Source of the DNA: Amoebophrya sp. A120
Lineage: Eukaryota > Protista > Dinoflagellata
Direction of reading: 5' to 3'
Length of the DNA stretch: 64,000 bases
Assembly (NCBI GenBank): GCA_905178155.1
Contig: CAJINV010000005.1
Location: forward strand, 5,411,038 to 5,475,037
Shown here: in pieces, positions 1 to 59,987 of the stretch
Numbering within the stretch: the first letter of the stretch is position 1
How the letters are laid out: each line of letters begins with the position of its first letter
Translations under genes and position numbers: made by a program
The notes under the pieces: generated by a model
Told to the model about the DNA's origin: nothing
The model's database searches: none
The model's input: only the letters and a program-made list of their open reading frames with translations

Positions 1-3000
1 CCACCCGACGGATCTCGTGCCGACTAGGACCACCCTGGAAGTAGATGGTCATCACGCCCAGGATCTTCATACAACTGGACGAGATGACGCAGTTCCTTCT
101 CGTCCTCGTCTCGTCCACGATGAAAATGCAAACGACCCACCACAGGACGAGCTCGTCCGTGCAAGAGCAACTGGCTCTGCCAACAGCGCAAGAAACAACT
201 CCAACTCGTCCACTGGCGGAACCCGAACCGGGGGCAACGACGTTGTGTCTTGTTGTTCTACCGCTCCGGTTGCGCTGCAGCTGAAACAACAAATTCATGA
301 CGGGGATGAAGAAAATGTTGACGAAAGAAAAAATTCTACGGGCTTTACTGGAGGTGTAGTTGACACCAGAAGTAATAGAAGTCTTCCTGATCATCATGAC
401 CACCCCGTTCATCCTACTTCCGGCGCGAGAACATCGACCAAGACGACGAGCGCCACGACCACGCCCTCTTCTATCCTGACCAAGCTGCGGCTTTTGAACG
501 CTTTCCTGGTGCGGCGCTTTCTCGTGTATCCACAGTAAATATCCCGGACACGTACATCAAATGTGGTTTCTGCATGACAAAACTTGCCTCCAATCCTAGT
601 GCAGCATGACAAGCTGGGCTCCGCAAGGTAGCGAAATTTGTCATGCATTTTGTACATGTTGTACAGGAAATTTACATCGCATATCGTGGTCCAGCTGCGG
701 CGAAAGAGACGGATTCAGGTGGTGTACAACTGTCTGAACCACTGGAATATCGAGTGCAAATATGTCTGGGTCTGGAAGAGTGCCAGGTTTGTCATGCAGG
801 TTTTCCATGGCCACCCATGAGGGGTGGTATGTAGGACATAGCACGACAGATTCTGCGAGAGTTCAATCATGCCTGGTCTGCATGAGAAACTACTGCCTCT
901 CGATTAGGTCAAAAGCGCACAGCTTTTGGCAATCATGCAACACAGATTTACTTTACATGATTTTGATTCAGATTTAGCATGACAAGTTGCACCCTTTGTC
1001 TGCTTCCAGACCCAGACACATTTGCATTTGATATGGAAAATTCTCGGCAGGCTGATGCTTGCGTTCAAGCAGTATTACGCCAAGATCCGCAGAGTTCAGT
1101 CCTGTATCCTGTGCAAGAGCATCGTATTCGTATAAATGCATTATAAATTTTCTCAGCATGAGAAACAATAACAAATGAAACTTGTAATGCGGATTGACTT
1201 TAAGAAAAAGATTTAAGTATAATGCATCATGACTGCAATTAGTACGAGTACGTGTGCGATACTTTTGCGCTGCATATCCTGGTGGAAGGAAGACGCCGGG
1301 AAAAAACTAGCGGCGAAAGTCCAACGGCTGACGAATCGGTGGACCAAAATCGAGTACCAGATCGTGGAAAAAAAGTTGCTGGCTTTAGAAGACCACAGTG
1401 CGCCGGGAGCTAGTACAACTACAGTTGCGGGGGCGGATCATATCGCAAGAAAAAACTTGTAATGCAGAAACTGTATCTCAGAAGTGTTTGTCTTGCTACA
1501 CATGCAAGCCAGGTGATGTTTAGCTGTGTTTTCCCTTAGGGACCTCGCATGGCAAGTCTTCCCTGTCATGTAGAGCAAACTTGTAATGCAAAACTTGCAA
1601 AATTCCTACAGTGAAACACCTTTTTCGTACGATAGATCGAGGCCGAGTGAACTACAAACAGGGCGGCGCGACGAGGAGGAGAGGGAACAACATAAAGAAC
1701 TTGAACGGTAGTTCATCTGTGGCGCAAGCAAATCAAAAAAAGAACCCGATCCACCCGGGCAGCTGCAACTTCTTCTACAAGGACAACAACCACACCTCCG
1801 GAACTAGTAGTACAGTGAAGCTTCGCAATTTTAACACGTCCCTAGCTGGGGGCTCTACTGGTGGTCGTGCTGGTGGTATGGAGAGAAAAAAGTTTGTCAC
1901 AGTCACTACCTTGCAGGTTTTGCATTACAAATTTTTTCAGCATCACAGCTTTTCCCTGTATTGCAGAAACACTAGGGAAATGCCTTATGAAGTTTGGCTG
2001 TGATGCATTTTTACGCATGACAGAAAATTTTGTATTGCAAAAATGCGCATAAATGGTTGTGGCGAACTTTTTTTGTTTGATAGGTGGCGGCGCTGCAGGG
2101 TACTCGACGTCAAAAGCTGGCAACTTATCGACTTCATCCACCTCAGCGGTATCAACTGTAAAAATGTCTGGGTCTGGAAGAATGCAACTTGTCATGCTAA
2201 ATCTGAAGCATGCAAAAATCTGCGTTGCATGATTACCAAAAGTCGTCCAGATTTGACCAAGTCGGGAGGGAGTTGCTCATGCAGGATAGGCATGAGAGAG
2301 ATCGGACCGAATCTGTCATGCTAGGCCCTGCATTCCAGACCTCGCGGGTCATGGAAAAGCTGCATGACAAATCGCGCATTCTTCCAGACCCATACACTTT
2401 TACACTTGATAAGCGGTGCAAAGCAGCAAGGTTCAAAAGATGCTCCAATTGGATTTTTCGGAGCGCGTGCAACTAGCTATGGTCTCGGAGCCAGTCCGGA
2501 CGAAGTTTATCAAGCAGCACCTGCGCCAGCTGCGGACGTCCGACTACCTGCCGAAAGTGAAAAACTGGGAGAAGGTATCACGAAGAAAAACCCCCCTTCC
2601 CCATATCAATGTCAGCTTTTTTGTCATGCTAGAAGGCAAATAAAGATGCGGACTCACTACAACTGTAGTGCTTGGTGGCGTGGGAAAGTAAGCCTTGCAG
2701 CTTCAGCATGACAGGAGACAGTGGGGAGCAGCATCATGGCAAATTGCCTGCAAGAAACGAGGCCACGACTGCGGCTCTTGGCCTTCTAGCAATACAAGTC
2801 GATTTGTGTATTCTGATACAGCATCACAAATTTCGTTTTCGATATGGGGAGGTGGGGGGAGTTTTCCTTGCAATAGAAGCTGTTCAAGATCTACCAAGAG
2901 AAGTTGAAGAGCTGGTGCGAAGATCGTATCCTGTGCAAAAGTGTCGTATTTGTATTGCAGTCATGCATTACAAATCTTTTTCTATAAGGAAATCAGCATT

Positions 3001-5992
3001 ACAAACTTTATTTCTCATCATGCTGAGGAAATTTGTAATGCAGTTATCCGAATGCGATACTTTTGCAATTCATAGATCGGAAGGCGATTCAATTTCTGCA
3101 CCAGATGCTCTCCCCGCCCGCTGCCAGCTCTGTTTCCTCGAGCGGCGGCGGTGGTGGTAGAAATAACAGCGCTCCTGCGGCTGCTGGAAATAGTACAAGT
3201 GGCAAAACAAGCAGCAAGACGAGCAATAGTACTTCTTCTGGCGCAGGCGCCAGGGCAGGACCGCACCGACGCCAGTCTTTGATCGAAATGGAGTACTTGC
3301 ACTCGAAGCCGTATCCCCTTCCCACCGGGTGCGGCTTTTTTAAGCCAGAATTCGCCATTTCTGACGAGACGTTGAACCAGTGGATTATATGCATTGCAAA
3401 AGTAAAAGTATCGTACCAGTATGAATAGCATTACAAATTTCTCCAAGAGAAAAAATGCAATTTGTCATGCTGGACAAGGTAGAAAGGTAGACGTAGATGA
3501 TTTGTAATGCATATGCCTGCCATTACTACGAGTGCGATACTTTTGCACAGGATAGATTACCAAATGTCGGAACGACATGCACGGAAACACCATCACGAGC
3601 ATTACCCAGGCGTGCTCGAAGTCCTTCTACGGGTCTTCCTCTCGTTCCTCGTGGCGCCCGGGCAGTTATGCTGTGCAACAGTATCGTACTACTTGCAAAT
3701 ATGCATGACAAATATTTTTCCTAGCGAAAAGAAGCATTACAAATTCCACTTTCCTTTTTGCCAAAATTTGTCATGCATTTTTCATACTAGTGCGATGCTG
3801 TTGCAATGCATAGCAGTACTTCTAGAACAATTGGGAGCTGTAATTATCATGGGGCGGCTGCTGGTACGTCGTCTACGAAGGATGGAAAACCGAACGAAGA
3901 AGATTCTTCCCCCTCCTCCGCGGCCTCCAGCACGTCTTCAGACGATTCCGGCAGCAGTTCATCCGCGCCAGAGGATCCTGAAGACTCGGACGATCCTTCC
4001 GACGCAGAGCAGAACATCGCCGCAACTTGGTCGGGGAGCAATTGTATTAGTGATAAAAATGTACAACTAGCCCTCAGAGCTGCAGCGCCAGGGCCCGGAG
4101 CAGGAGCTGCAGCCGCATCTTCTGCGGCAACTGGTTATCCTAAGCAAAAACGTCCCCACCCCATAGTCAAGTTGGGAATCTAGCAACACAAATCCCCAAG
4201 TTTTGGGAGCTGTGCGTGACAAGTTTCCCTCTGCAGTGTAGTGCTGGTCGGCAAGGGAAGCCGCATCAGAAAGCCATTTTCTCATCCCGTTTACAGCATT
4301 AGAAATTCCAAAACACGATTGGAATTTAGAAATGCCTCCCCTGGAGCTGCGCATTACAAATGTTCCTGTCAGTGCACGACATTTGCTTTTGCATGACAAC
4401 TCCGGGGTGCGGACGGGTTTACTTCGGATACTACTGGCGGTTTTTTTACCGCAGGTGGCCGTGGACGAGATCCAAGTGCAGCGGCTGGGTCTATGCACTG
4501 CAAAAGTATCGTACTCGCATAAATGCATGACAAATGTCCTCAGCATGGGAAATGAAATTTGTAATGCTGCTTCACCTTAAGAAAAAGATTTGTAAGGCAT
4601 GACTGCAATACGAATGCGATACTTTTGCACAGGATAGGGTCGTCACCTGCTCGATTTTCCTCGCCGTCGCCACTCTCGATGTTGGGGGCGAACAGCATCG
4701 GTGCGGGGGGAGGGGTATGAATTGCAAAAGTATCGTATTCGTATAAATGCATTACAAATTTCCTCAGCATGACAAATAAAATCTGTAATGCTAATTTGCC
4801 TTAAGAACAGGATTTGTAATGCATGATTACAATACGAGTACGATAGTTTTGCACAGGATAAGGGGGTAGTGTCCCGTCGCCGTCGAACAAGCTGCCCGGC
4901 GCCATGGGACGCATGTTTTATCAAAGTGAAAAAAGCCCCCACCCCATACTCAAAAGGCAATTTGTGTTGCTGGATTTGTGTACACAAATAAACTTTGTAT
5001 TGCGTGAAGAGCTTGCCGGTATATTCCAAGGCCATTTGGGTACTACGCATCCGGCTTGCAGCTGCGCATGAGAAACAAGTCTGACATAGGCGAAAACGCA
5101 TCACAGACTGGCTGCACAATGCACCACATGGGTGCCGTTTGCCTTGTGCGCAAGACAAAGTCAATTTGTGGCCACATATCAGCATCACAAATTTCCTTTT
5201 CGATATGGGGAGGGGGGATTTTTCCTCGCGATATGTTTGCCAACCTCGTTCTCGCGGACGCGCACGACGGGACTGGCGACTTCTATGGAATCGTCAGGTT
5301 TGAAATCGACAAAGTTGCAATGATTTGCCGTGCACAAAATGGATGCCAGTTGCAACCCAGTTTCCAAGCGGCGCATGACAAACCTCGGCGATGCTTAGTT
5401 CCAGTTTGTCATGCTGTTTAGGCAAAGATGACTGACTTTCTCATGCTACTTTAGCGGCTCGAGCTCTAACCCCAAACAGGCTTACAATTGCCCTCACTTG
5501 CCTGCTCTGCAACACACGTATTTCGCGCTATGCATTTTATGCATCACAAAGTATTTCAAGAACTTTGTCGATTTCAAACCTGACGCTTCCATAACTTCAT
5601 CGCGACACGCCGAAGGCCGCGAGAAGACAGCATTCTGAACAAGAAGCGGGGCTTATCAACTGCAAAAGTGTCTGGGTCTGGAAGAGTCGGGACTTGTGAT
5701 GCACATTTTGCATGACCCGTGAGGTCTGTGATGCTGGTGCTAGCGTCACAGATTTTTTGAGACCTTCTTGATGCTAATTACGCATGAGAAATGCCCTCTC
5801 CGCGTGCCAAGAGCTGACTCCTCTTGCTGCTCATGCAACACAGATACTTTTAGAATCCGCAGACAGCATAATTACAAGTTCCACTCTTCCCGACCCAGAC
5901 ACTTTTGTATTCCATAGGGCTCCGGAGGGGAAATTTTACCGAACAACCTGGAAGAGGTTTTCCAGCAGGTCGAGAATGTTCACTTTGAATGA
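1..5992 (+). CDS. Gene 1 (5' partial), hypothetical protein with an IQ-like segment, split by 16 introner elements
   Basis: Removing each element plus 5 nt joins ORF 17-538 to a continuous frame ...RRFLVVQLRRKRRIQVVYNCLNHWKILGRLMLAFKQYYAKIRRVQSWWKEDAGKK...EEVFQQVENVHFE, TGA at 5990-5992. The frame is open to the left edge. The IQ-like call (IRRVQSWWK) is weak. Confidence 0.85.
527..683. mobile_element. Introner family G
   Basis: TAT…ATA, imperfect TIR, TSD TCGTG. Confidence 0.9.
748..1033. mobile_element. Introner family B (TIR …TGTCTGGGTCTGGAA)
   Basis: TIR, TSD TGGAA. Confidence 0.92.
1105..1276. mobile_element. Introner family A (TIR TATCCTGTGCAAAAGTATCG)
   Basis: TIR, TSD TCCTG. Confidence 0.92.
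1441..1634. mobile_element. Introner family F
   Basis: TSD GATCA/GATCG. Confidence 0.88.
1877..2082. mobile_element. Introner family F-like
   Basis: TSD GGTGG. Confidence 0.88.
2150..2411. mobile_element. Introner family B
   Basis: TIR, TSD AGCGG. Confidence 0.92.
2576..2875. mobile_element. Introner family E (TIR …CCCCCTCCCCATA)
   Basis: TSD GAAGG/GAAGC. Confidence 0.9.
2927..3074. mobile_element. Introner family A
   Basis: TIR, TSD GATCG. Confidence 0.92.
3388..3554. mobile_element. Introner family A (reverse orientation)
   Basis: TIR, TSD GATTA. Confidence 0.92.
3667..3812. mobile_element. Introner family A
   Basis: TIR, TSD GCAGT. Confidence 0.9.
4136..4430. mobile_element. Introner family D (TIR TATCCTGAGTAAAAACGTCCCCAC)
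   Basis: TIR; TSD CTGGT vs CTA-CTGGC. Confidence 0.85.
4492..4636. mobile_element. Introner family A (reverse)
   Basis: TIR, TSD GGGTC. Confidence 0.92.
4716..4860. mobile_element. Introner family A (reverse)
   Basis: TIR, TSD AGGGG. Confidence 0.92.
4919..5233. mobile_element. Introner family E
   Basis: TSD TGTTT. Confidence 0.92.
5284..5593. mobile_element. Introner family C (TIR TATGGRAGYGTCAGG…GAAATCG)
   Basis: TIR, TSD ACTTC. Confidence 0.92.
5654..5916. mobile_element. Introner family B
   Basis: TIR, TSD GGGCT. Confidence 0.92.
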
Positions 5993-42600: not shown

Positions 42601-42608
42601 CCGCGGGC

Positions 42609-42907: not shown

Positions 42908-43530
42908 CCCGGAGGAGGAGAAGGTCTGGACCCGGGCGGGGGAGGCACGGAGGCCCAACCTCCGGAGGAAGAGGTCCGGCCTCCGGAGGAGGAGGAGGCC
43001 CAACCCCCGGAGGAGGTGGTCTGAGGTCCGGAGAAGGAGGTCCGGCCTCCGGAGGAGGAGGAGGTCCAACCCCCGGAGGAGGAGGGCGGACCTCCGGAGG
43101 AGGAGGTCCGGCCCCCGGAGGAGGAGGAGGTCCAACCCCCGGAGGAGGTGGTCCGGCCTCCGGAGGAGGAGGAGGTCCAACCCCCGGAGGAGGAGGGCGG
43201 ACCTCCAGATGAGGAGGTCCGGCCTCCGGAGGAGGAGGAGGTCCAACCCCCGGAGGAGGTGGTCTGAGGTCCGGAGGAGGAGGTCGGGCCTCCGGAGGAG
43301 GAGGTCCTTCCAACCTCCGGAGGAGGAGGTCCTTCCAACCTCCGGAGGAGGAGGCCCAACCTCCGGAGGAGGAGGCCCAACCTCCGGAGGAGGAGGGCCG
43401 GTGTACGGAGGAGGAGGAGCTCCGGGGTCCGGAGGAGGAGGCCCGGTGACCGGAGGAGGTGGTCATGGTTTGGACGGAGAAGGCCTTGGGCGTGGGAGGA
43501 GGTGGTCCGGTTGGGGGAGGAGGTGGCCGG
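42908..43530 (+). repeat. G-rich repeat (CCGGAGGAGGAGGTCC…)n
   Basis: Directly visible degenerate tandem units. Confidence 0.9.
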
Positions 43531-43629
43531 GGTTTTTGTTGGTGCTCGTGAAAATTGTTGGGTATGAACGGTTTTCGTCCTTAATTACATTTCTCAACCC
43601 CAGCCAAGGAACGAAAATACGAATACGCA

Positions 43630-46516: not shown

Positions 46517-49500
46517 ATGACGATGATGTCGACACAGCAGGAGGATCAAAAACAACACGCCCAGCGGGCGCCGATGACCTGGAAAAATGCGGCGAAGCCG
46601 GGAGCGAGTACCGCACTGGGACTGGCAACCACATGGGGAATGGTGAGTTATTCTTTGTAGATGCATTGACTCAGCTCAGACTTTGCTCACACCAGCCGCA
46701 CTGCAAAGGCATCATTTGCTGACTATCCTGTTTACAGCATTGCAAATTGATTCCAAAACACGACTGGAATTATTGCCTATCATGGGGACGATCACGCGCC
46801 GCGTGGTCACAAATGTTCCTGTCATTGTTATTGCAAATCCGCATCACAAGAACTCGGGGGCGGCGGTGGGAGCCTTTTTGGTTAACAGGGTGAAATCTGA
46901 ACTACTCAAAAAAAGCTCAACGTCTAGAAATAAAATAAGAATCAACTATTGAAAATTTTAAACTCTCTCCCACTGCTCTCTACTACTTTCAATTTTTTTA
47001 AAACAGCGGCCACAACTCGTCGCGAGGAACGCGAAGACGAGAGCGGGTGCTACCGCGCTGGCAACATGGCTGACGTTGTTGAAAAGTGGGCCTTTTACAA
47101 CAACGGTCGAGGGATACAATCCGCGACCGGGAGGTGGCACAACCACATCTACTGTCGCAAAAATGGGACCGGAACTACAAGATGACGAAAATAACAACCG
47201 AGGAGACGACGAACTGCCAACAATAACACACGTCGAACACCTATCCAAGGAAAAAAAATGTGTAAGTGTAACTTTCTTTAGGTGCTGACAGCATCACAAA
47301 TTTGCTCTGCATGACAGAGAAAGCCTGTCACGCGTGGTTTGTAAGGGAAAACACACATGAAAAGAGGACTTGATGGTTGTCTGGCATGACAGGCGTGCCT
47401 CTGTTGCATGTTTTGCATTACAGAGTTTGTTACACTTACGCAGTTTTTTTCTTGCGATAACACCGGCAGAGCATTCCGGTGTCTTCGCTCGGAGGCAGGA
47501 TCAACATCCCCGCCAGCACCTCGAGTGCTGCAGCCGCGCCACGACCTCCTACTTCTCAAAAAGAAGCTGCAGCAGCAGGAGCTCCACGCAGGGCCTCTTC
47601 ATCTGGTCGTGAAAGTACTTGGAGAGCAGCACGATCTAGTACTTCTTCTTCTTCCTCTTCGTTCGTCGAAACCACAAGACGGGAGAGTACGGAAAAAAAC
47701 CACCAGGAGCACCAGACAACCTCAACCGCGCACGACACGAACGACGATTTCGGCTGTGAGCACGGTGCCTGCGGTGATGAGGACTCTAGATACGCCAAGA
47801 GAAAACTGTTTGTTCACTGTAAAGTTTACAGTGAAAGAACCTGTAGTAATGCAGAAAATGCATCGCTGAAGTGTTTGTCTTGCTGTGGACCCCCAGGATC
47901 AGGTAGACGAGGTCCCAGACCGAAGTGGTAGGCGCTTAGGGTGAACTATGTATGTAGGGCCCTTCCGTGCGGCCAATTTGTATGTCCCGCAACGGGGTTC
48001 GCCTATGTCGGTCATTTGTATGTGAGGCGATGGGTTACCCGGTCGGCAGAGCCGATCCACAACGAACGAACGATACACATGCAAGACGAGTGATTTTTCG
48101 CGGCGTTTCCCCTTAAGATCCTCGCATGGCGAGTTTTCTTTGTAAAAATGTGTAGCGAGCTTGTAATGCAAAACTTGCAATAAAATTCTATACAGTGAAA
48201 CAGTTTTTTCTTACGATACTAGAGGCCCAGAGGCCACAGTCGACCTGCACTCCGCCACGAAGCCCAGGATGCAGCCTGGAGGTCGGAAGAAAACTGCGGG
48301 GGGTCCTCCTATGGGAGTGTCAGGATCGAAATCGACAAAATCGAAAAACTTGTAATGCATAAAATGCAGGGCACGCAAGGCCTGTGTTGGGGAGAAGGCA
48401 AATGAGACCGATAATTGCAAGCCTGTTTAGGGGAAGAAGACGCGTTGCCAGAGAAGCATGACAGGAGCAGTGTTCTTTGCCCAAACAGCATGACAGACTG
48501 GATTTTGCAGCTCCCGAAATTTGTCATGCGCCACTTGGAAACTGAGGGCCCAACTGGTATCGATTTTATGCATCACAAATTTTTCGATGTTGTTGATTTC
48601 GATCCTGACACATCCATACCTCCCCGTGCAGATGAGGAGAATGGCGATGGATGGTCGTGTACCATTTGTAAAAACGTCTCCACCTCTTCCCCAGAGTCAA
48701 GTAGACGGGAAATCTGCTAGACAAATCAGCATGCTTTGGCTGTTGCGCATGACAAGTTCTTTGGGCGCGTAGTCGTGTGCTAGACGTCGCTTACGTTATT
48801 TCGCGCTAGTGCAGAAGCATCGCACATGCAGCATCTTACGCTGATTTGAGCATCACAAATTCAGATTCCAAAAGAACGCGTACGAGTAGAATACTAAAAC
48901 ACTTCTACCACTACTCATGGGGCTTCGCATACGAAACATTTTGAGCATGCAGCTTTGCATGACAAGAACTCTGGGCACGACCACCTGGGGACATTTTTAC
49001 ACAGGATATCGTGTGACGACGACGACGACGACGATGGTGGAGAATCCGGACTGTGTATCCTGAGTAAAAGTGTCCCCATACCAGAGTCAAGATGGGAAAT
49101 CTGCTAGACAATTCTCCAAGCTTTGGGAGTTTTGCATGACAAGTTTCCATCTGTAGTGTACTGCTGTTTAACAAGAGAAGCAGCATGAGAAAGCGAGCTT
49201 CTCATCCTGTTTACAGCATTACAAAGTCCAAAAAACGATTGGAAAGGCCTCTCATGGAGATGCGCATCACAAATCTTCCTCTCATTGCACATTTGCATGA
49301 CAACTATGGGGTGGGGACGCTTTTACATACGATACTGTGCCCAGGCGGGTCCTCGTCCTCAACTCGCCCCGTCGAAGCGATGATGGCTCCGCCCGGTGGT
49401 CGTGAACAAGTTCTATCAAATGTAAAAATGTCTGGGTCTGGAACGATGCAACTTGTGATGCGCATTTCACACCACACAAAAATCTGTCATGCATGCAAGC

Positions 49501-52500
49501 CAAAAGGTGCACATTTCCGGTCACCGAAAGAAGTGCTTTGTCATGCGGATGACGCATTAGGAGACCTTCTCAAACAAAACCTGTCACGCTAGGGCGTGCA
49601 TGGTAGACCTTCTGGGTCATGCCAAAGCTGCATCACATACCTCTGCATTTTTCCAGACCCAGACATTTTTACATTTGATAAGTTCAAGGAGGTGACGATC
49701 ATGCTGGTGTTCTTACTCACCAGCGCGCGGCGCAGATGTCTTCCAACACGGGTCGTGGTCCTGCTGCGCGGGTGGTCACTGCGAATGCAAATGCGGGAGT
49801 AGGGGTGCAACAACTTGATTTCGACATTCCCGACCGAAATGGAGAGATCGTCGGCCACGCGACCATGGTCCCCGCTACCGGCGTCGTATCCGTGACGGCC
49901 ACCCAGGGAAATACGGTGAGACAGTCTCCTATGGAACTGTCAAGATTGAAATTGACAAAGTTGAAAAATTTGTGATGCATAAAACCGATCATACCAGTTG
50001 AGAGCCCCATTTCCAAGCGGTGCGTGACAAGTTTCTACGTCAGCGAAATCCAGTTTGTCTTGCTGTTTAGCGAAAGAAGGCATCCTTTGTCATGCTACTT
50101 TAGCAGCTCTATCTCAAACGACCCATTGCAGGCTCACAATCGGCCTCACTTGCAATCCCTGCAACGCAGTCACTTCGTGCCTTGCATTTTATGCATCTTC
50201 ACAGATTATTTCAACTTTGTTAATTTCAATCCTGACACAACCATATCTCCGGGAGGACGGGCCGCAAACGGGCAGCAACTGCCCCCCGAAGTCTGGATCG
50301 AAACCAAGGATGGCGAATGGGTGTTTGTCAAAGCGCCGTACGTCTCTTACGACCCGGTGACCGGGGAAGTACGAGTGCCCGACCCTACTGGTACAGCTGC
50401 AGCGACTGTGCCAACCTCTGCTCAGCAGCAGCTGTCCCGGGGAAGAAGAGGACGACGAAATCTCGGGGGGAGACAAGATGAGCAAGAAGATCTATCCTGT
50501 GCAAAAGTATCGTACTAGTCGAAATTGCATTACAAATTTCCTCAGCATGAGAGATAAAATTTGTAATGCGGACTTACATTAAGGAAAAGAAAAAGATTTG
50601 TAATGCATGACTGCAATGCCTAGGACTACGAGTGCGATACTTTTGCACAGGATGAGATCCCTTGGAAAACGATCCGCTGATGCAGCCCGATCCTGATTTG
50701 GATCTGCATGTTATCCTGAGTAAAAACGTACCCACACCAGAGTTGTAATGCAAATCTGCATGCTGAAAATGTTTCTCATGCGGAGCTCCATGAGAAGCAT
50801 TTTCTAGTCGTGTTTTGCAATTTGTCATGCTCCAATCAGCATGGTATGCTAGATCTGTGATGCTGCTGAGCTAGCTCAAACAGCACTACACTACGAATCC
50901 AAATTTGTCATACAAAACGGCCAAAGCTTGTGGATTTGTCTAGCCGATTCCCCATCTTGACTCTGGTGTGGGTACGTTTTTACTCAGGATACATGTTGGC
51001 GAGACGGGGAACTACAACAACTACCCCAATTATGGGCCGCCTCGTCCTCCCGCACCGCCCGCTTGGCAGCAGCAGCAGCAGCAGCAGCAGCGATACGGTT
51101 CTGTCGCTTATTCCAACCAGCACCTCGTGCTGGGCCAACCTGGCTTTCCCGCTGTTCTTGGTCCTGCTGTTGCAGGAGGAGCTCCGTGGGCGCCTGCTCC
51201 AGCTGCGCCGCAAGACCGAAACCGAGGGGGGTGGAACAACGACAAGAGCTGGTGGAAAGAGAACCACGGCAACCACGAGTGGAACGACGGCAACTGGGGG
51301 CGGAAAAACCACGGCGACGGGTGGAAGTACGACTACCGGGGGCGGAACAGCAAGTGGCGGCAGCCGCAGCAGCCACAGCAGCCGCCGCCGCAGCAGCAGC
51401 AGCAGCAGCTGTTGCGGCAGCAGCAGCAGGAGTTCCGGCGGGAGCAGCAGTTGTTGCAGCAGCAGCAGCAGCAGCAGCAGTTGTTGCGGCAGCCGCAGGA
51501 GTTGTGGCAGCAGCAGCAGCAGCAGCAGATGGAGCAGCAGCAGCAGGAGTTGTGGCAGCAGTTGCAGCAGTTGCAGGAGATGGTGCAGCATCAGCAGAAG
51601 GAGTTGTTGCAGCTGCGGCAGCAGCAGCCGCAGTGGCAGCAGCAGCAGCGGCAGCAGATGGAGCAGCAGTTGCAGCAGTTGCAGGAGATGTTGCAGCGGC
51701 AGCAGCAGGAGTTGTGGCAGCAGTGGCAGCAGCAGCCGCAGCAGCAGCCGCAGTGGCAGCAGCAGCAGCAGCAGATAGAGAAGCAGCAGCAGCAGTTGCA
51801 GCAGTTGCAGCAGTTGTTGCAGCGGCAGCAGCAGGAGTTGCGGCAGCAGTGGCAGCAGCGGGGTCCTCCTGCTCCTCAACAACGACCGCCAGATGACCTT
51901 CGTCCAGATGGCCATCCTCCTGCTCCTCGAACGCCGCCGGCCCCCGGCGTCCACACGACCTACGAGTTGTCTTTCCCCCGTGAACTTCGCCCGGTCCACC
52001 CGGAAGAGGTTTTGGGTGAGGACTCTTTCCCCCCGCCGATATCCAGTGCAAAAGCATCTTCGCACTCCTGCTCGTCGTACTTCTAATCGCAGTTATGCAT
52101 GACAGATCTATGACCACCTGAGGGAACAAGTAGTGGTCAGCATATAATAAATTAACAAGCTCGACGTCCTGCGTTTCTTCCCTACGGAAAAATTTGTACT
52201 ATTTTTGCGATTTCTACTATATACGATTACGATTATACTTTTGCAATGGATAGCCGATGTTGCCCGACAATGCAGACGACGCGGAGTTTATCCAGGAAAA
52301 AAACTGTGTAAGTGTAAGCTTCTTGGTGGAAGAGCATCGCAATTTTGCTCTGCACGACACAGAAAACCTCCTCCTGTCATGCGTAGCTAGTACGTGAAAA
52401 CACGCACGAAAATTCAAATTGCCTCTGATGCATGTCCAGCATGACAAGTGTAACAGTTTTGCATTTTCTGCAACGCAGAGTTACACTTACACAGTTTTTT

Positions 52501-55500
52501 TCTTCCATAGAGTTCGTCGGGGTGGTGTCCGTCGTGACGCAGGTGCTGGTTCTGACCCACGAGCTGCTGGAAAGCTACGAGGGGATTCGAAATTGGGATC
52601 CGCCACATCCTGGTATGTTGTCTCGAATTCAACAATTCATCGACGACAGTACCTCCTCCACCTCCTGTCCGTATTTCAGCCAAGAGAATGCCCGGAAAGT
52701 GCGCAGCGGGCCCGCACAACCCAAACCGGAAGCCAAACCGGCCGCAAAACCGGGTGCAAAAGCCAGGAACCTGAGCAGCCTGTTGCTGTCTGGCCAGTTG
52801 ATCTCGTCCCAGCTGTTTTTCATGAACGACTTGGACCAGGTCCGGGAGTGGCTGGTGGACTTCGACAAGTACATTCAGGAGGAAGTTTATCCTGAGAAAA
52901 AACTGTCTCAGTCTCAACTTGTAATGCGCAACTTCCTTGGGACAGTTTTTTGTCAACATGCTCGACATGCAAGAAAGAGAAAGTCGTCTTTGATCATATG
53001 TGTTTTCCGTTTTTGTGTTTGACGCATCACAGGTTTTCCGTGTCATGCTGAGCAAATTTGGGTTGCCGAGCCAGACAGTTTTTCTTGCGATAATGTTTTT
53101 ATCGAGAAGATTGTTCTTGACGGACGAGAACAGCCAGCGAATGACCCTGGTGCCTTCTGGTCGCACAACGCGCTTCACAAGAGGATTTGCGAATATGCAG
53201 CTCACGATCCCCCTCATGGTGATGACTATTTCGAGGGGGGGGATATCACGTTGGGCCGCCCAGTTGTTGATGGAACGCCGCGAGCGCCGTGGTCGTGCTT
53301 TATCAAGCCTGAGGCCACGGCAGGGCCGAGCCGTGCGCCCGACGAGAAGCAAAAACGTGTAAAGCTGGAAAGGCACGCTGCGCTCTGCGGCGCGCAAAAA
53401 CATTTGATCGAGCCGCTGCAGAAATTTCTCGGGTTGGGGCAAGCAGGTGTCAATGGGGTGCCGTCGAGAGCACATGTGCCGTCGAGAGAAGAGCGAAGAG
53501 GAGACGACTTTGGGACGCAGTTCCACTTGCCCGAATGGGTTCTTCAACTACTGCAAGAAGGGAAGCAGAAGCTCGACGGAGCGAAACTGTGCAAAAGAGC
53601 TTACGTCAAGGACCCCCAGCATCCGACCAGCGACACCGCTGAGCCCATGTGCTCCGACGTTCTTCATACGCGGTCGTGCGAGATTTTGCGCGTAGACTTC
53701 TGTGAAAGAGTTGAGGATTCGGGTGGTGGCGGTGTTAGCGGACAATTGGGGGTGAATCCGAGGAAGTTTTCCGAACTGGGCTCGTCGCACCCAAACAACG
53801 GGAAACCTTGCTGCGAAAGGAGCGCAGCCGGCATCAACGTGTTCGAGCAGGGTTACTTCGAACAGATATCAAATGCAAATACGTCTGGGTCTGGAAGAAT
53901 GCGACTTGTGATGCTGCATTTGGATTCCAAAAAAATCTGTATTGCATGAGCAGCAAAGGGAATGCGATCTCTGCTCCGTGGAGTGGGCATTTGTCATGCT
54001 GAGTAGGCATCTGCAAGATGCCCTAAAAAAATCTGTGATGCTACGGCATGCATTACAGACATCATGGCCCATGCAAAATGTGCATGACAAGCTCCGACTC
54101 TTCCAGAGCCAGACTTTTTTGCGTTTGATAACAGAATCAAAAACCCTTACGCAAAATGCTTGGCGCGTCGAATGAGCACACGACGCGACTTCTCTCCGAC
54201 TCGAACAAAGATTTTGGCGCAACGCACGAGTTATGGATTGCAAACGTGTCTTCATCTGCGTGGATCTCTGGAAACAACAAGGAAAACTACCTGTGAAGTA
54301 GTAGATCCTCTGTAAATAACCGGTTGGGGATGATTTTTGCAATGCTCGAAGGAGCCAACATGGCTGCTTTCTCGCATGACAAATTGAAAGGAACAAGCTA
54401 GAGCCCACCTATTGCTATTACAAGTTTGGCTTTATTTCTACTTCCAGATCCAGACATATTTGCAGTGCATACGAGTTGGCGCGGGAGTTGGTTCTCACGG
54501 AATTGCAGCTCGTCGAAACGTATGCATTGCAAAAGTATCGCACTCGTAGTAATTGCAGTAGTTATGCTGCATTACAAATCTACATCCCAAGGTAAAACAG
54601 CATGACAAATTCCATTTGTCATGCTGAGGTAATTTGTAATGCAATCAAGTACTGCTAGTACGACGTGCACGATGCTTTTGCAGTTCATAAAACTTATGCG
54701 TTGCAAAAGTTGTATCGCACAACTAAGACTAACATTTTAGCAGCACCAGAGAAGATCTGCGCATCACAAATTTGGTCAGCATGAACAATAGAATTTTCGT
54801 ATGCTGGTTCTTAGCATACGAAGATTATAGGTCTGGTTTTTAGCGTACGAGAAAGAAAATCATACATGATTTTTACCATTACAGTTTGTTAGGAGTATGA
54901 TACTTTTTTTGTACAGGATAAAGATCTGAACGCGGTGAGCGAGTTGGGACTTCGTGACGAAGCCGACCTCTTACGAGAATTCGGCCGAGAATTCGGCCTT
55001 CCGTATGGGAGTGTCAGGATTGAAATCGACAAATTTGAAACAATTTGCAATGCATAAAACGGATACCAGTTGGCCCCTAGTTTTCAAGTGGCGCATGACA
55101 AATTTGAGTAGAACCGAAATCCAGTCTGTCATGCTGTCTGGGTAAGGAAGGCGCCTTTTGTGATGCTACTTTAACAGCTCTATTTCTACAACCCCTCAAC
55201 AGGCTTACAATCTGCCTGCCTTGCCTACTCTACAAGACAGGCATTTTGTGGGTTGCGTTTTATGCGTCGCCAACTATTTCAACTTTGACGAGTTCAATTA
55301 TCCTGACGCTTCCATATTCCGGAACCAAGCCCGCGGCACACATACCAAAAGGTCCAGCAGATTTTGGCTCCGGAGCGGCAGCGGCTGCAGCACCTGCGGT
55401 GGCTGGTAGATTTGAATGACGTCGAGTTGTTGCGGAGGCAGAGCCCTATTCAACCTCAACGGGGAGGTCCTCCGGTGCCTAATGCGGCAAGTAGATCACC

Positions 55501-58500
55501 TCCAACGCGAACGCCGCTCGACCAACTGAAGACTGCGATCATCGAGTTCCAGTTCAAACCAATCGTCGAGTTGCACACCTTATGAATCGCAAAAAGCAGA
55601 TCGTCATCGTAAGTACTACTAATAGTATATTCATCATAGTGCGAAAATCATATGCGCCGGCGCTGCAAATCTTTTTCCTAAGGTAAATCCGCACGGTTGC
55701 AGCAAAGTCCATTTCTCATGCTGATGAAGTTTGTAAGTAAATGCAATAGCAATTGATGTTACTAGTAGTAGTACTAGTAGATACGATTACGATACTTTTG
55801 CAATGCATACACGTTTGCTCGCATCTACCTGGATCATGAACAACAGCCGGACGCCGCCCAGCCGCCGGGTTCAACACCTTCGTCCCCTGGTGCTAGTGCA
55901 GCAACAGCAACAGCTGCATGGCAAATGTCTGAGGACATGAAAGTACAGGCGGAAAAAATAACCGAGGCCGTGAAAGGGGATCGCGCGTTTTGCCCCTTGT
56001 TGCCAGGGCGAAGGGAAGCTGACTACATGCCGAACCTGGTCCACTTCGAGAAGTGGAAGGTTTTCTACGCCGATTCTGTGCCTCGGGGTGTTTTGTCGCA
56101 GGTTCTTGAACGCATTCCCGAAGAGCAGAGGGAGACGCTTCGTAACCAGGTTAACGAGGCACGCAACAATCCCGATGAAAACCGTGATTTGATGTTCGGT
56201 CAACTTGACGCGTATGAGGGCCGCAGAAAAGCGCTGCGTGACGCGGAAACAAGTATCGTGACTGGTCCGCTTGAGTTTTTGCGAACCGCGATGTGCGAGT
56301 ATTCCTATGGAGCGAAACGCGCCTTGCACCAGTACGACGCCAAACTTGTTGCTTTTGCGAACAAGCGTCATGGTCGGCATCCTGATTTGCCGCGGATCCA
56401 AAGCAGAACGGACCATTTTCTGGAGGCGAGTGGTACCCCCGTTTCCCGAGCTGGGGCTGCACCAGCAGGTGCAGCACCGCAAGCGGCTCCTGCAGGGGGA
56501 TCTCGTGGAGGAGGAGGAGGAGGAAGTCGATCCCCCCAACAAGCACAATCGAGACCACAAGCGGCGCGTCGTTCCTCTTCTGCGCTGGAGCTCCCGCAGC
56601 AGAGCAATTCCCAAAACAGCATCTCGTCCGTATGGGAAGCTTCTCAAATGTTACATTCTCAACTGTCACATGAGTTTGTGATGCAAAAATGACAAAAGTG
56701 AAAGGGGTGACCTTGCACGTCTCGCATGACCACAGATTTGCGTCAGAGATTCTCAGACTGTTTGGCTGTTCTAGAATTTGTCATGCGAAGCAGCTTGAAG
56801 ATCGCGTCGATTCTGCTTGTAGTTTTGCATGACAAAAAATCATACAGCAGTTCAAGATGAAACATTTGAGAACCCCATAGTCCGCAGACGAGGACCACGG
56901 GTCTCCTACTACCTTCACTTCCATGCTGGAAACCATGACGAACAAAGAACTCTCGGACCTACTACAATGAAAAATGCCCCCACGACGACGACCCCGAAAT
57001 TTGAAAAAGTGTCTCACGCATGAGATTTTCAAATGAACAAGAACTTTTTGTCTATGCATGAAAGGACTCCCGCGAGTCTTTCTGGTGCAGAACCGAGATG
57101 CCTGCGTAAGGTACCTTCTGGACCATAACAGACCCGGCTCCTGTTGTTGGGCTCCTTTGCAGCACAGATTTGCGCTATTCATCAACAGGGAGATGACTTT
57201 GTGACGCTGATACAAGCAAGGCGGGGAATTTTTCCATTGGAAAGGTTTGCACACACAAACGCTGCCAAGTTCTCGGGTGGGGGCATTTTTCATCGTAATA
57301 CGCCGCTGATGTTGAGGCCGCCCGGGTGGTCTTTGATGAAGCTGAAGCTGGTGAAGTTGAGGCCGCCCACGTGGCCTCTGGTGAAGCTGAAGGTGCTGGT
57401 GAAGTTGAGGCCCGCGTGGCCTCTGGTGAAGCTGAAGGTGCTGAAGATATCCTGAGCAAAAACGTCGTCCCCACCTCAGACTCAAGATGAGAAATCTGCT
57501 GGAAGATGAGAATAAATTTTTGACCAGTTCGTGGTCAACAGGGTCGTGAAGACGTTGTGTCGAAGATGACAGGTTCTTTGGCCTCGTAGTCGTCTAAATG
57601 CTAATGCTGTTTAGATAGTTCAGAAGCGTCTTCACAGATCTAGATCTACTACGTAAAGCATATTGAAAAGTAATCCTTTTATGCTGATAATTCGAGCAAG
57701 ACAAATGCAAATCCCCAAAGTACTAGAGCTGCATCAGACATAAATGCTCCTCATAAAGCTCGTCCGCATGAGAAATCAATTTTCTGCATGACGAGAACTC
57801 TGGGCTCGACGTTTTTACTGAGGATAGTTCTTATCGGCGACGAGGGCGACGACGACGAAGATATCAAAAAGAAAAAGCCCCCCTCCCCATATCGGAAACG
57901 AAATTTGTGATGCTGTATATGAGTACACAAGAAATCGACTTGTATTGCTAGAAGGCCAAGAGACGCAGTTGTGGCCTGAATTGCAGGCAATTTTTCATGC
58001 TGTTTCCCACTTCCAGTTGCCTCGTGTCATGCTGGAGATGCAATACTTCCCTACGCTAGGTAGCACTACAGTCCGCATCTACTTTTGCCTTCTAGCATCA
58101 CAAAGCTGATTTGCGACCACAAATCTGCATCACAAATGTCCATTTTGATATAATGGGGGGGATTTTTGTTCTTGATAGACGACGAGAGAAGTTCTTTGGC
58201 CGTCACCATCGGAGAGGAGGGAAGCACCAGCACGGTCTATCAAATACAAATATCGAAGATCTGGGCCTAGATGAAGATTTTTGCAGGGAGGTTTGTTGAT
58301 GTCATGCGCAGACCGTCGCTTTCCATGCCGCCCATGACTGAAGTCTGAAATGCTGCAGGGCTTTGTTCTAGCGTGACAGATTAAGTACAACGTGAGTAGT
58401 TCTTTCTCTCATGCCTGTTCTGCTTCTGCATGACGTGCATGACCACGAGAAAAACCCTGCTTTATCACCTTGAGACCAAAATTTGGCAAGAACTCTTGGA

Positions 58501-59987
58501 GGCAACCATGCAACGTTAGATTTTTGTGTGACCACCACCGACCCCCATGATTAAGCACATCAATCAATCAAACCAGGAGCATTATGCATCATTTTAATAT
58601 TTTAGACCCAGACACAATTCTTGCAATGCATACGGGCCTGCTGGAAACCGAAGATCCCGCGACGAACAAAATTGCTCCGGCTGAAGATGCAGCGGTAGTA
58701 TCCTGTGCAAAAGTAATATGATCGTACTCGTAGTAATTGCAGTCATGCATTACAAATCTCGTTCCCAAGGCAAATAAGCATGACAAATTCCAGTTGTCGC
58801 GCTGAGCAAATTTGTAATGCAATTATTATGACTAGTACGGTAGTACTTTTGCAATTCACATGCCGCGGCTGCAGCGCCCACGACAACTACGCGGAAGAGA
58901 AACCTTATGGAACTGTCAGGACTGAAATTGACAAAGTTGAAATAATTTGTAATGCAGAAAATGCATGACGCGAGGTACGTGTGTTGCAGAGCAGGCAAGT
59001 GAGGCCGATTGTAAGCCTGTTTGGGGTTAGGGCTCGAGATGCTAAGGTAGCGTGAGAGAATCAGTCTTCTTTGCCTAAACAGCACGACAAACTGGATTTT
59101 AGGACCGCCAAAATTTGTCATGCGCTACTTGGAAACTGGGTTCCAACTGGCATCCATTTTATGCATGACAAATTATTTCAACTTTGTCAATTTCAAACCT
59201 GACGCTTCCATAAACCTGAAATTCCTCGAGCGCGTGGCGCCGCAAGAAAAGAAGACGGCGGAGAAGGATATCCCAAGGAAAAACGTCCTCAACTACTTCA
59301 AGTTTATTGGGTTGTCGAGCATGACAAGTTCTAGTACGTGCTATTGACTTTCGGCTCGTAGTGGTCTAATAATCCTCTTGCTTCAGCTAGTAGTCGTGCA
59401 ATCGCAGTAAAAAGTGACTACCTTAACCTTACTCTGATTGTTCTAGCATGACAAAGAACTACTCCACCTCCCAGACTGGATTTTTAGAAATAAATGGCTT
59501 TCATGCAGCTGGGACTGCGCATCAGAAACGTTTTAATTATGCTTGCGGGTTTACAACGTGACGAGAACCCTGGGGAGGTGGGGACATTTTTACTCAGGAT
59601 TCCAGCGGAAGCGGAAGGACAAGAAAACGAGGGGAGCCAGAGCCAGGAGCAGCCCGCCAAGTATGGATTGCAAAAATGTCTGGGTCTGGAAGATTGCTAG
59701 GTTTGTCATGCACGTTTTGCGTGACGCGTGAGTGTCTGTGATGCATGACCTAGCATCACAGACAACTTTTAGAGGCTCTCCTAAATCAGGATGAGAAATG
59801 CTCTCTCCGTCTAACACAAAGAAATGGACTCGCTCTTCTTGTTGGTCATGCAATACAGATTCTTTTGGAATTCAAAGACAGCATTACAAGTTGCAACCTT
59901 GTTCCCGACCCAGACACTTTTGCAATGCATACCAAGCCGGCGAAAACAACGGAGCGAAAGTTCCTGGCCCCCCGAGGTGAGGAATAG
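46517..59987 (+). CDS. Gene 5, large hypothetical protein with a Gln-rich region; one GT-AG intron (46643-47006) and 27 introners
   Basis: MTMMSTQQ…TTWGM|RPQLVAR… stays in frame through all junctions, incorporating ORF-track segments 50968, 52432, 53251, 55364 and 55925, to TAG at 59985-59987. A GT donor at 59977 could extend it. Confidence 0.8.
47242..47459. mobile_element. Introner family F
   Basis: TSD ACACC. Confidence 0.9.
47791..48218. mobile_element. Introner family F with nested insertion (starts TAC)
   Basis: TSD CTAGA. Confidence 0.88.
47884..48073. mobile_element. Nested ~190-bp insertion within introner 47791-48218
   Basis: Interrupts GTTTGTCTTGC|TACACATGCAAG, which is contiguous in relative 1441-1634. 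TGTGGA…TCCACA ends plus an (ACGA)3 tail. Confidence 0.7.
48310..48618. mobile_element. Introner family C
   Basis: TIR, TSD CCTCC. Confidence 0.92.
48660..49008. mobile_element. Introner family D-like (starts TAC)
   Basis: TSD TCGTG. Confidence 0.88.
49056..49334. mobile_element. Introner family D
   Basis: TIR, TSD CTGTG. Confidence 0.92.
49414..49680. mobile_element. Introner family B
   Basis: Perfect ~30-bp TIR, TSD AGTTC. Confidence 0.93.
49930..50245. mobile_element. Introner family C
   Basis: TIR, TSD TCTCC. Confidence 0.92.
50493..50654. mobile_element. Introner family A (ends ATG)
   Basis: TIR, TSD AGATC. Confidence 0.9.
50712..50991. mobile_element. Introner family D
   Basis: Perfect ~32-bp TIR, TSD CATGT. 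Confidence 0.93.
51360..51860 (+). repeat. (CAG)n-rich coding repeat, poly-Gln with LLQ/ELW spacers
   Basis: Directly visible in a gene 5 exon. Confidence 0.9.
52040..52252. mobile_element. Introner family A-like (diverged)
   Basis: TIR TATCCA(G/T)TGCAAAAG, TSD GCCGA. Confidence 0.9.
52289..52509. mobile_element. Introner family F
   Basis: TIR …AAAAAACTGTGTAAGTGTAA, TSD GAGTT. Confidence 0.92.
52888..53092. mobile_element. Introner family F
   Basis: TSD AAGTT/ATGTT. Confidence 0.88.
53867..54130. mobile_element. Introner family B
   Basis: TIR, TSD ACAGA. Confidence 0.92.
54232..54471. mobile_element. Introner family B (diverged)
   Basis: TSD CGAGT. Confidence 0.9.
54521..54689. mobile_element. 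Introner family A (first of a back-to-back pair)
   Basis: TSD AAACG/AAACT. Confidence 0.88.
54695..54920. mobile_element. Introner family A-like (second of the pair)
   Basis: TSD AAACT/AAGAT. Confidence 0.82.
55004..55316. mobile_element. Introner family C
   Basis: TIR, TSD TTCCG. Confidence 0.92.
55581..55809. mobile_element. Introner family A-like (diverged)
   Basis: TSD CACCT/CACGT. Confidence 0.88.
56631..56879. mobile_element. Introner family J
   Basis: TIR, TSD GTCCG. Confidence 0.92.
56960..57300. mobile_element. Introner family L (TIR TAYTACRATGAAAAATGCCCCCA)
   Basis: TIR; flanks GGACC/CGCCG; frame restored by +5 removal. Confidence 0.85.
57448..57826. mobile_element. Introner family D-like (diverged)
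   Basis: TIR; flanks GAAGA/GTTCT; frame restored. Confidence 0.85.
57862..58177. mobile_element. Introner family E
   Basis: TSD GAAGA/GACGA. Confidence 0.9.
58238..58632. mobile_element. Introner family B (diverged)
   Basis: TSD CGGTC/CGGGC. Confidence 0.85.
58699..58860. mobile_element. Introner family A (ends ACA)
   Basis: TIR; flanks GGTAG/TGCCG; frame restored. Confidence 0.85.
58906..59212. mobile_element. Introner family C
   Basis: TIR, TSD AACCT. Confidence 0.92.
59269..59601. mobile_element. Introner family D-like (diverged, ends ATT)
   Basis: Flanks AAGGA/CCAGC; frame restored. Confidence 0.82.
59662..59931. mobile_element. Introner family B
   Basis: TIR, TSD CCAAG. Confidence 0.92.

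Follow-up and report, generated by a model that had tools for sequence, protein, structure and literature searches.

The elements that interrupt the genes of the window (the whole 64-kb stretch of DNA analysed) are non-autonomous transposons with terminal inverted repeats (TIRs), or MITEs, that act as introns. Wherever the cut could be placed, the intron began one base ahead of the element and ended four bases past it. By their signature as published, the elements are assigned to a system already known, the introner elements of Amoebophrya A120 (Farhat 2021, PMC7789003), which makes this marine parasite the likely source of the DNA. The sequence-only reading had correctly linked them to Amoebophrya introners, and the match goes beyond likeness, since the inverted repeat (IR) motif and 5-bp direct repeat (DR) described for A120 are those of these elements. 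New here are the N-TAT...ATA-NNNN register, a constraint on the +2 T at the 5' end only, canonical GTA donors in a relative and sites that are polymorphic against a wild orthologous locus (L003).

A curated catalogue holds 85 TIR elements in 527..59931, each of 112-428 nt and together 21,543 bp or 34% of the window (Table 1). They start with TAT (82/85) or TAC (3/85) and 81/85 end in ATA; position 1 is T and position 2 is A in all 85, position 3 is T in 82, and A stands at positions 11, 12 and 13 in 65, 68 and 77 of 85. The 5-bp direct repeat (TSD) is exact in 63/85 and has 1-4 mismatches in 22/85. As a control for chance, pairs of TAT..ATA with exact TSD (≤600 nt, TIR score ≥3) were counted, with 60 in the window versus 0-1 per Markov-simulated window (n=20). 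Among 116 scored TIR pairs the TSD was 5 bp in 58 and 6 bp in one, the rest (mostly mispaired ends) having neither. Catalogue and simulation bear out the earlier description of 85 elements with TIRs, TAT…ATA ends and a 5-bp TSD, with the correction that a quarter of the TSDs are imperfect. The elements form at least 13 multi-copy families plus 13 singletons, and both orientations relative to the genes are used. Summed depth of the DNA-like run X1 over elements reached up to 155,000 versus ~45, which marks genome-wide repeats and gives no copy number. An internal motif, GCAT[GCT]A[CG]A, is common to nearly all families and falls inside elements at 263 of its 269 window matches (136 on the + and 127 on the - strand); nothing relevant by title was found for it among the literature matches listed. 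Folding predicted strong hairpins (median z -7), with TIR positions 4-15 paired in 76/85 elements and no terminal helix in 9/85, 54695 included. Neither a TSD base bias nor a phase bias (27/27/30, p=0.9) was found.

Table 1. Genes with their elements, and the two introns with a uniquely fixed register.
Feature	Coordinates	Strand	Elements or ends	Basis
g1	ORF 2-5992, 5' open	+	16 within 527..5916: 527-683, 748-1033, 1105-1276, 1441-1634, 1877-2082, 2150-2411, 2576-2875, 2927-3074, 3388-3554, 3667-3812, 4136-4430, 4492-4636, 4716-4860, 4919-5233, 5284-5593, 5654-5916	Catalogue and frame
g2	ORF 14690-16077	+	2: 15165-15458, 15622-15883	Catalogue and frame
g3a	ORF 20706-27418	+	18 within 20138..27076: 20138-20368 (upstream of ORF), 20748-21012, 21195-21457, 21534-21812, 21945-22257, 22430-22789, 22813-23074, 23144-23291, 23337-23597, 23683-23908, 23972-24292, 24359-24612, 24789-25095, 25138-25444, 25650-25866, 25916-26220, 26508-26769, 26818-27076	11 junctions in RNA-like contigs; orthologous locus L003
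g3b	ORF 28217-30791	+	5: 28484-28796, 28869-29113, 29150-29392, 29430-29673, 30279-30619	All skipped as element+5 in X3 and X8
g4	ORF 32671-42172	+	17 within 34253..42101: 34253-34518, 34584-34890, 34973-35098, 35185-35332, 35374-35485, 36289-36595, 37074-37303, 37601-37873, 37981-38231, 38327-38485, 38599-38908, 39298-39449, 40135-40442, 40474-40796, 40847-41104, 41318-41429, 41934-42101	Catalogue and frame; no junction among rows listed, little cover
g5	ORF 46962-59987	+	27 within 47242..59931: 47242-47459, 47791-48218, 48310-48618, 48660-49008, 49056-49334, 49414-49680, 49930-50245, 50493-50654, 50712-50991, 52040-52252, 52289-52509, 52888-53092, 53867-54130, 54232-54471, 54521-54689, 54695-54920, 55004-55316, 55581-55809, 56631-56879, 56960-57300, 57448-57826, 57862-58177, 58238-58632, 58699-58860, 58906-59212, 59269-59601, 59662-59931	Last 16 absent from one X3 contig
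Uniquely fixed intron	28868..29117	+	CT..AG; TSD copies differ at 4/5 positions	X3 and X8
Uniquely fixed intron	57447..57830	+	AT..TC; flanks differ at 4/5 positions	X3 piece ends 57446, X8 record 20 agrees, X1 confirms DNA

Removal was followed in X3 and X8, contigs of a single study that are presumed to be RNA and behave as such, none of the datasets containing this stretch being recorded as RNA. At least 32 of the 51 elements compared were missing as exactly element+5, without contradiction among the joints listed; six of the other 19 were consistent only via the total length of X3 record 2. Fourteen of the 15 joints listed skip exactly element+5, and two further elements are bracketed. The 3,557-nt X3 contig in g5 lacks its 16 elements by adjacent pieces in three cases and by exact length sums in 13. 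Elements 54521 and 54695 sit 5 nt apart (54520..54924), leaving no exon base between them in the observed register, and the X3 length sum fits loss of both plus 10 nt. The raw RNA runs X9 and X10 gave no junctions, both covering only two repeat stretches. In X1, depth was ~42-60 in unique bins and pieces spanned whole elements with 0 differences; X6 pieces also ran through elements. The depth of the element-free run X3 was gene-specific (348, 30, 0). These data support precise removal at the RNA level.

Removal of element+5 left a stop-free frame at 16/16 junctions in g1, 2/2 in g2, 17/18 in g3a, 5/5 in g3b, 17/17 in g4 and 27/27 in g5, as had been claimed for g1, g4 and g5; the g3a exception is the upstream element 20138. 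ORFs of 1,816 and 1,868 aa reappeared only with elements removed. Removing element+3, +4, +6 or +7 broke the long frames. In g1 and g4 the frame also survives removal of element+2 or +8, and frame alone is therefore no proof of 5 nt. The length follows from the RNA-like contigs together with the RPB1 gene of a relative, whose contig carries the same elements. This RPB1 has a EukProt protein as its best match (86%), with further matches to apicomplexans and dinoflagellates from 61-64%. Removal of element+5 was needed inside highly conserved motifs and gave a gapless alignment at 6/6 alignable exonic junctions, where +2 and +8 failed. Five genes had been proposed for the window; six ORFs were traced, which come to five genes if a distinct 1,002-nt insert divides a single gene into g3a and g3b. 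No Pfam family scored above cut-off in 24 window exons/ORFs, Rfam gave 0 matches, and one homologue search, started from exon 1 of g4, returned nothing.

Insertion was compared at the wild locus L003, which has 96.6% exon identity to the window. Seven of 11 insertion sites differed. All seven differed by element+5, and each empty site held one TSD copy. L003 precisely lacks five window elements, shares four and has two of its own; since one contig keeps the shared elements and has its own, the differences are strain polymorphism. Over 712 aligned exon bases, which held 24 substitutions, six elements were polymorphic. Such precise presence/absence differences point to recent turnover, with no transposase reported for A120. 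The empty sites, the TIRs, the fixed-length TSD and the short, non-coding sequence identify the elements as MITEs. No transposase Pfam family was detected in the 24 window exons/ORFs or in 137/233 long locus ORFs, and the window and 150 loci held no autonomous element that has the same ends and encodes a transposase. The loci also have long TAT..ATA elements (631-1,104 nt), which contain cargo or extend across neighbours, with no frame >240 codons in four examined. Farhat et al. 2021 found no transposase in A120 (PMC7789003); Gozashti et al. 2025 describe a TIR family of A120 that has an integrase-like ORF and no Ginger termini (PMC12130899).

The position of the cut was read at seven junctions with unequal TSD copies. 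With k as the number of left-TSD bases kept, 21534 allows k 3-5, 22430 k≤4, 28869 k=4, 52888 k≥2, 55581 k≥4, 56960 k 3-4 and 57448 k=4. All share the register exon/N-TAT...ATA-NNNN/exon (slashes mark the cuts), and two fix it uniquely (Table 1). At 57448 the flanks differ so much that no usable direct repeat is left. Element 20138 has three extra bases between ATA and repeat, and the X3 piece start at 20373 (a piece start only) fits the ATA+4 rule. Contrary to what had been assumed, the six registers are not equivalent; one is used wherever readable. That most TSDs allow no GT…AG in any register was correct, with none in 80/85 elements (5/85 in any register). In the observed register (k=4) GT-AG occurred in 3/85 versus 1.8 expected. 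Neither G at +1 (27/85, p=0.63) nor a terminal AG (10/85, p=0.22) was enriched, and the first base of the next exon followed background composition.

The two ends differ at one base. The element's first T (intron +2) was altered in 0/240 and its 3' mirror T in 10/240 (pooled p=0.002), made up of 0/85 vs 3/85 in the window and 0/155 vs 7/155 in metagenome elements (p=0.016). The latter were oriented by a codon model, 180/335 being unorientable and dropped; one of these, L001:1358, would count as a 5' variant (GC donor) should it share the strand of the neighbouring gene. Elsewhere the TIRs showed no 5'/3' asymmetry, which leaves neither a polypyrimidine nor a branch signal to be seen, and no strand-specific branch motif was found in the elements. 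The data give no support to a branch point at the A of ATA. The A at -7 is invariant in the window and varies in 2/131 metagenome elements. Canonical introns in the relative's RPB1, a small sample (n=7), have GTA donors in 7/7 and GTAT in 4/7. A set of 18 ab initio canonical-intron calls was discarded, as the finder missed those already known in RPB1.

We consider it probable that these MITE-derived introns are cut by a relaxed U2-type spliceosome with the TIR as a ruler. The TAT of the TIR would supply donor positions +2 to +4 and, as this matches canonical GTA(T) donors, only the G at +1 would be waived. The TIR duplex likely draws both ends together and fixes the acceptor at 4 nt beyond its base, replacing AG scanning. 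With the cut inside the TSD, the exon regains its sequence at any target, and the elements would thus be able to spread almost freely through coding DNA. Insertion is likely by a DDE transposase, with the shared internal motif as its candidate binding site. Amoebophrya has U2, U4, U6, PRP8 and the majority of the spliceosomal proteins; snRNP27 was not detected, and U1 was not found in A25/A120 (PMC7789003); in yeasts, absence of SNRNP27K accompanies a +4 U preference (PMC10581693). The chances are about even that the spliceosome is U1-less, needs neither +1 G nor terminal AG, reads U(+2)AU from a transposon end and measures off the acceptor at 4 nt beyond the TIR helix. If so, any MITE insertion, in either orientation and at any target, would become a seamless intron, which would account for an intron turnover that runs, between close relatives, at about one intron gained or lost for every four exon substitutions. 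Against a spliceosome count the missing enrichment of +1 G and AG, the lack of a polypyrimidine or branch signal, a stable TIR duplex that would hide the donor bases from U6, the U1 not found in A25/A120, a register uniquely fixed at two junctions only and the nine elements lacking a predicted terminal helix. Of the dedicated precise-excision pathway proposed from sequence alone, precise RNA-level removal is supported, but a relaxed spliceosome fits better than a wholly dedicated machinery. How Amoebophrya removes its >60% non-canonical introns is a question standing since 2021, which the single cut rule, the 5'-only +2 U and the GTA(T) match make testable in specifics. The rule would also mend intron annotation, whose borders now scatter across the repeat. 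Were the route spliceosomal, the chemistry would be possible even when the G(+1)-G(-1) contact is missing, and TIR structure could stand in for AG selection.

A separate RNA endonuclease/ligase, non-spliceosomal or a second spliceosome, that recognises the TIR helix and cleaves at set distances from it, on the model put forward for Euglena, is possible but rather unlikely. Offsets that are measured by structure (1 nt 5', 4 nt 3') while the end dinucleotides are free, function in both orientations and the unfound U1 suit it, as do the 2-3 nt longer 3' spacer of the Euglena rule (PMC12501133) and intron circles in euglenids (PMC11282704). It does not account for a cut that coincides with TAT at +2..+4 of canonical donors or for a +2 T constrained at the 5' end only, and TSD-made hybrids (GT..NN, NT..AG) occur at background rates but are described as rare in Euglena. 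We regard as improbable that a transposase-derived protein on the TIR or the internal motif directs RNA excision. The intron ends are transposon ends and the motif is near-universal; end recognition would, however, be symmetric, whereas register and base constraint follow the direction of the gene and not of the element, so a symmetric transposase-type cut fits poorly. The transposase searches were also negative, here in 24 window exons/ORFs and 137/233 long locus ORFs and in A120 per Farhat.

Template-switch artefacts classically arise where short direct repeats flank strong hairpins. The elements have this layout, and window proteins without Pfam match and the empty g4 search would suit decayed genes. 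Reverse-transcriptase switching in decayed genes is still very improbable: junctions 28869 and 57448 are exact despite having no usable repeat, whole contigs lack every element, the two long ORFs return only after removal, and the relative's RPB1 needs the same removal in conserved motifs. IES-like DNA excision in one life stage, which the sequence-only reading had allowed, is the least credible, as the DNA-like X1 run holds the elements in place, X6 pieces run through them, X3 depth is gene-specific and the five elements precisely missing from L003 reflect strain polymorphism, even though contigs drop rare variants and a minor or stage-specific excised fraction would escape.

Among known systems, ciliate-type IESs are removed precisely from somatic DNA, whereas X1 keeps the elements at unique-sequence depth. 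IS3EU/GingerRoot elements share TA..TA termini and encode an integrase-like DDE transposase, but their TSD is usually 6 bp rather than 5 bp (PMC10045372). Introns of Fritillaria borealis also bear TIRs and TSDs and are removed by a modified U2 spliceosome (PMC11282704, PMC13326754); AG-AC and AG-AT ends dominate there, whereas the window elements leave +1 and the two final bases unconstrained. Euglena nonconventional introns are likewise MITE-like with TIR-paired ends, a spacer-defined cut, a longer 3' spacer and GT-AG introns alongside. They differ in their rule N3-CDG..CH'G-N5-6/R (PMC12501133), with a CDG/CHG core at N3 and N5-6 and a required next-exon purine, and in circular products (PMC11282704); the window has N1-TAT..ATA-N4 with a free next-exon base. 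From U2-type introns the elements depart in mostly lacking GT (GC)-AG ends (present in 3/85 in the observed register), and they resemble host canonical donors in +2 U and +3/+4 (0/240 changes; GTA 7/7). A120 introners have an IR of TAT + 7 nt + AAA and a DR of 3-5 nt, 5 bp in the Fig. S19 legend, and their predominant non-canonical motifs are NT-NN in 9/9 A120 rows and TT-NN in 9/9 A25 rows of Table S4 (PMC7789003). The window elements have the TAT, seven variable bases and at least three As, a direct repeat that overlaps the exon/intron border with the cut inside it, repeated families and non-GT-AG ends, and they are dropped from RNA-like contigs. The A120 family lengths in 19/58 dataset rows (~106, 149, 160, 214, 260, 278, 305 and 320 bp) match the size classes of the window. 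With a mean length of ~240 nt and tens of introns per gene in both, the elements do not differ in kind from the A120 introners as described.

A de novo scan of the window, made with no prior assumptions, returned 65 matches of terminal inverted repeats (TIRs) with a 5-bp repeat, 45 of them starting with TAT. A screen for TAT..ATA pairs no longer than 600 nt, with an exact 5-bp repeat and a TIR score of at least 3, found 60, compared with 0-1 per window in 20 simulations. High-confidence ends were used as a library and, following hand curation, the catalogue held 85 elements of 112-428 nt, which confirms the number given by the sequence-only reading. Their direct repeats are exact in 63 and imperfect in 22 cases. 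Grouping the elements gave 13 multi-copy families plus 13 singletons; members of the larger families lie in both orientations relative to genes. The motif GCAT[GCT]A[CG]A fell inside elements, on both strands, in 263/269 matches. Searches of the window and of the scanned loci revealed no transposase.

Removal of each element plus 5 nt (element+5) gave single frames, all on the + strand. The frame was kept at 16/16 junctions of g1, 2/2 of g2, 17/18 of g3a, 5/5 of g3b, 17/17 of g4 and 27/27 of g5 (the traced ORFs carrying elements), reproducing the stop-free counts reported before for genes 1, 4 and 5 (16, 17 and 27). Other offsets disrupt the frames, except +2 and +8, which frame by itself cannot rule out. 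GT-AG is available in no register in 80 of the 85 elements, as had been claimed for most target site duplications (TSDs).

Removal was then followed in contigs of two RNA-like runs, X3 and X8, both from one study and taken as RNA by guess. Within 20001-40000, 14 of the 15 joints listed skip exactly element+5, and the remaining one is an opposite-strand join of element copies; two further elements are bracketed by contig pieces beyond these joints. All 16 elements of 52700-61200 are missing from a single X3 contig (3 judged from adjacent pieces, 13 from exact length sums). Overall, at least 32 of 51 compared elements are absent from the RNA-like contigs and 0 are contradicted. X3 depth differs from gene to gene. 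The run X1 has a DNA-like depth of ~42-60 in unique bins, and its pieces, e.g. 56775-57894, cross whole elements with 0 differences; X1 may equal the sample used to assemble the window. Since the X3/X8 contigs lack elements that X1 retains, the elements are removed at the RNA level, which supports the precise excision proposed earlier, although a rare DNA-excised fraction may still exist.

The cut register was read at elements with differing TSD copies, where the contigs reveal which bases remain (k, the left-copy bases kept in the exon; see table). Only k=4 is consistent with all seven informative junctions, giving one register and the intron N-TAT...ATA-NNNN. As the flanks at 28869 and 57448 differ at 4/5 bases, the repeat itself is unnecessary. 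The element at 20138 has three additional bases between its ATA and the repeat; an X3 piece begins at 20373, in indirect agreement with the ATA+4 prediction. In the k=4 register the 85 donors are GT (27), AT (21), CT (19) and TT (18), all at background, and an AG acceptor occurs in 10/85 elements, again at background level.

Features of the window and of loci from the wild relative, with their locations
Feature	Location	Observation
Cut register	21534	k 3-5 (X3/X8 contigs)
Cut register	22430	k at most 4 (X3/X8 contigs)
Cut register	28869	k exactly 4 (contigs)
Cut register	52888	k at least 2 (contigs)
Cut register	55581	k at least 4 (contigs)
Cut register	56960	k 3-4 (contigs)
Cut register	57448	k exactly 4 (contigs)
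Lone TIR-like left end	11835	partner not found
Insert of 952 nt flanked by a pair of 50-nt direct repeats	27214-28265	TIR-like end on right side only
X9/X10 raw RNA pile-up	27747-28215	template-switch adaptors at 27747 and 27839
Element pair with 5-nt spacing	54521-54920	zero-base exon between them at k=4
Long low-complexity frames	42246-45024; 50992-52039	no elements
Element nested in canonical GT-AG intron	L068:7308-7547	in RPB1
Known-family elements with 400-800 nt unrelated cargo	L068:5792-6763; L015:505-1608; L044:3862-4492	
Conserved gene adjoining elements	L013:2-1090	C-5 DNA methylase
Conserved gene adjoining elements	L012:4890-7352	SNF2 helicase
Conserved gene adjoining elements	L006:2-1414	UBA1
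Conserved gene adjoining elements	L030:5595-7271	KIN17
Conserved gene adjoining elements	L050:2663-5176	TRIP4

Other features of the window were inspected as well. The zero-base exon implies that removal there is either recursive or single-step. Loss of the 952-nt insert and one repeat (1,002 nt) would fuse g3a and g3b in frame; none of the contigs listed spans this join, and X3 record 2 stops within the first repeat. Reads of the raw RNA runs X9/X10 continue into other sequence at 28215, and 40 extra bases are present at 28047 in all four runs; the pile-up likely reflects an expressed copy of this repeat stretch located elsewhere. The low-complexity frames gave no Pfam match. Gly/Pro repeats lie near 43041-43433, and g5 has a Gln-rich exon.

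A metagenome pattern scan yielded 150 loci, from one assembly only, with the same element families. Five of them hold conserved eukaryotic genes next to elements (table), a possible source of further canonical donors. One of these (L003) is orthologous to window 16656-23520 at 96.6% exon identity. The two share 4 elements, while 5 are window-only and 2 L003-only. All seven differences equal element+5, leaving precise empty sites, at which two genomes alone do not separate gain from precise loss. The set comprised 335 unique elements (at most 2 TSD mismatches), of which 155 were oriented by a codon model that matched ORF orientation in 115/119 callable cases; 180 were dropped. Among the oriented elements the terminal T was changed at 0/155 5' ends versus 7/155 3' ends (p=0.016), and at 0/240 versus 10/240 with the window included (p=0.002). 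The constraint on this T, intron position +2, is 5'-only, and such asymmetry was absent at every other TIR position. One unoriented element would give a GC donor if on its neighbour's strand. In the relative's RPB1, element+5 removal gave a gapless alignment at 6/6 alignable exonic junctions, a count that excludes three elements in the poorly aligned tail and one within a canonical intron, whereas +2 or +8 left a gap. A 972-nt cargo element sits in a conserved RPB1 motif, and its element+5 removal still works. The seven GT-AG introns of this gene all start with GTA, four of them with GTAT. All seven (L068/L070) end in CAG, with 3' ends mostly C/A-rich rather than pyrimidine-rich.

The best candidate for the removing machinery is a modified U2-type spliceosome. 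A transposase would insert the elements, the TAT of the TIR would replace donor positions +2 to +4, and the TIR helix, predicted in 76/85 elements (median z -7), would bring the ends together and fix the acceptor. In the available text on A120, most U2-type parts are present, with U1 and snRNP27 not detected (PMC7789003); U1 is described as present in a strain with canonical introns (PMC12005148, in part), and the accessible portion of a study of yeasts links SNRNP27K loss to +4 U (PMC10581693). Against a spliceosome, no branch signal was seen in the elements, their ends carry no trace of a G or AG preference, and the TIR helix would have to open. A Euglena-like machinery is the chief rival; its rule, in the parts of the sources consulted, likewise has a 3' spacer longer than the 5' spacer, by 2-3 nt (PMC12501133; review PMC11282704). 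IES-like DNA excision, raised earlier, fits poorly, as X1 pieces cross whole elements unchanged, and transposase-directed cutting and an RT artefact also fit poorly.

Among transposons, IS3EU/GingerRoot has TA..TA termini resembling the element ends, but membership is not supported because its TSD is usually 6 bp rather than 5 bp (PMC10045372, in the portion available). Non-canonical splicing in tunicates is the subject of PMC13326754, the accessible part of which does not mention Amoebophrya. The link to Amoebophrya introners drawn from the sequence holds: Farhat et al. (2021) describe, in the text available, A120 inverted repeats of TAT, seven variable bases and at least three As, the signature of our elements, with 3-5 nt direct repeats (PMC7789003). 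A120 or a close relative is accordingly the likely host. For RPB1 of a contig carrying these elements, the top hit stands at 86%, and apicomplexans and dinoflagellates lead the named hits. In 19 of the 58 A120 dataset rows, Gozashti et al. (2025) give A120 TIR families with mixed splice-site and TSD calls, whose lengths agree with ours (PMC12130899). The nine predominant A120 motifs in Table S4 of Farhat et al. are all NT-NN and their text places four direct-repeat bases upstream of the 5' end, so that the k=4 register is latent in their data, although the legend to Fig. 3 describes variable sites with an unknown border (PMC7789003). Our literature search, based on partly available texts, found no publication fixing the register; Roy et al. 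(2023), Henriet et al. (2019) and the figures of Farhat et al. may bear on it. The window elements are real and already known as Amoebophrya A120-type introners. To this known system we add a fixed register, a directional +2 U constraint, a match to the canonical donor and strain polymorphism, which bring the question of the removing machinery within reach of direct tests.
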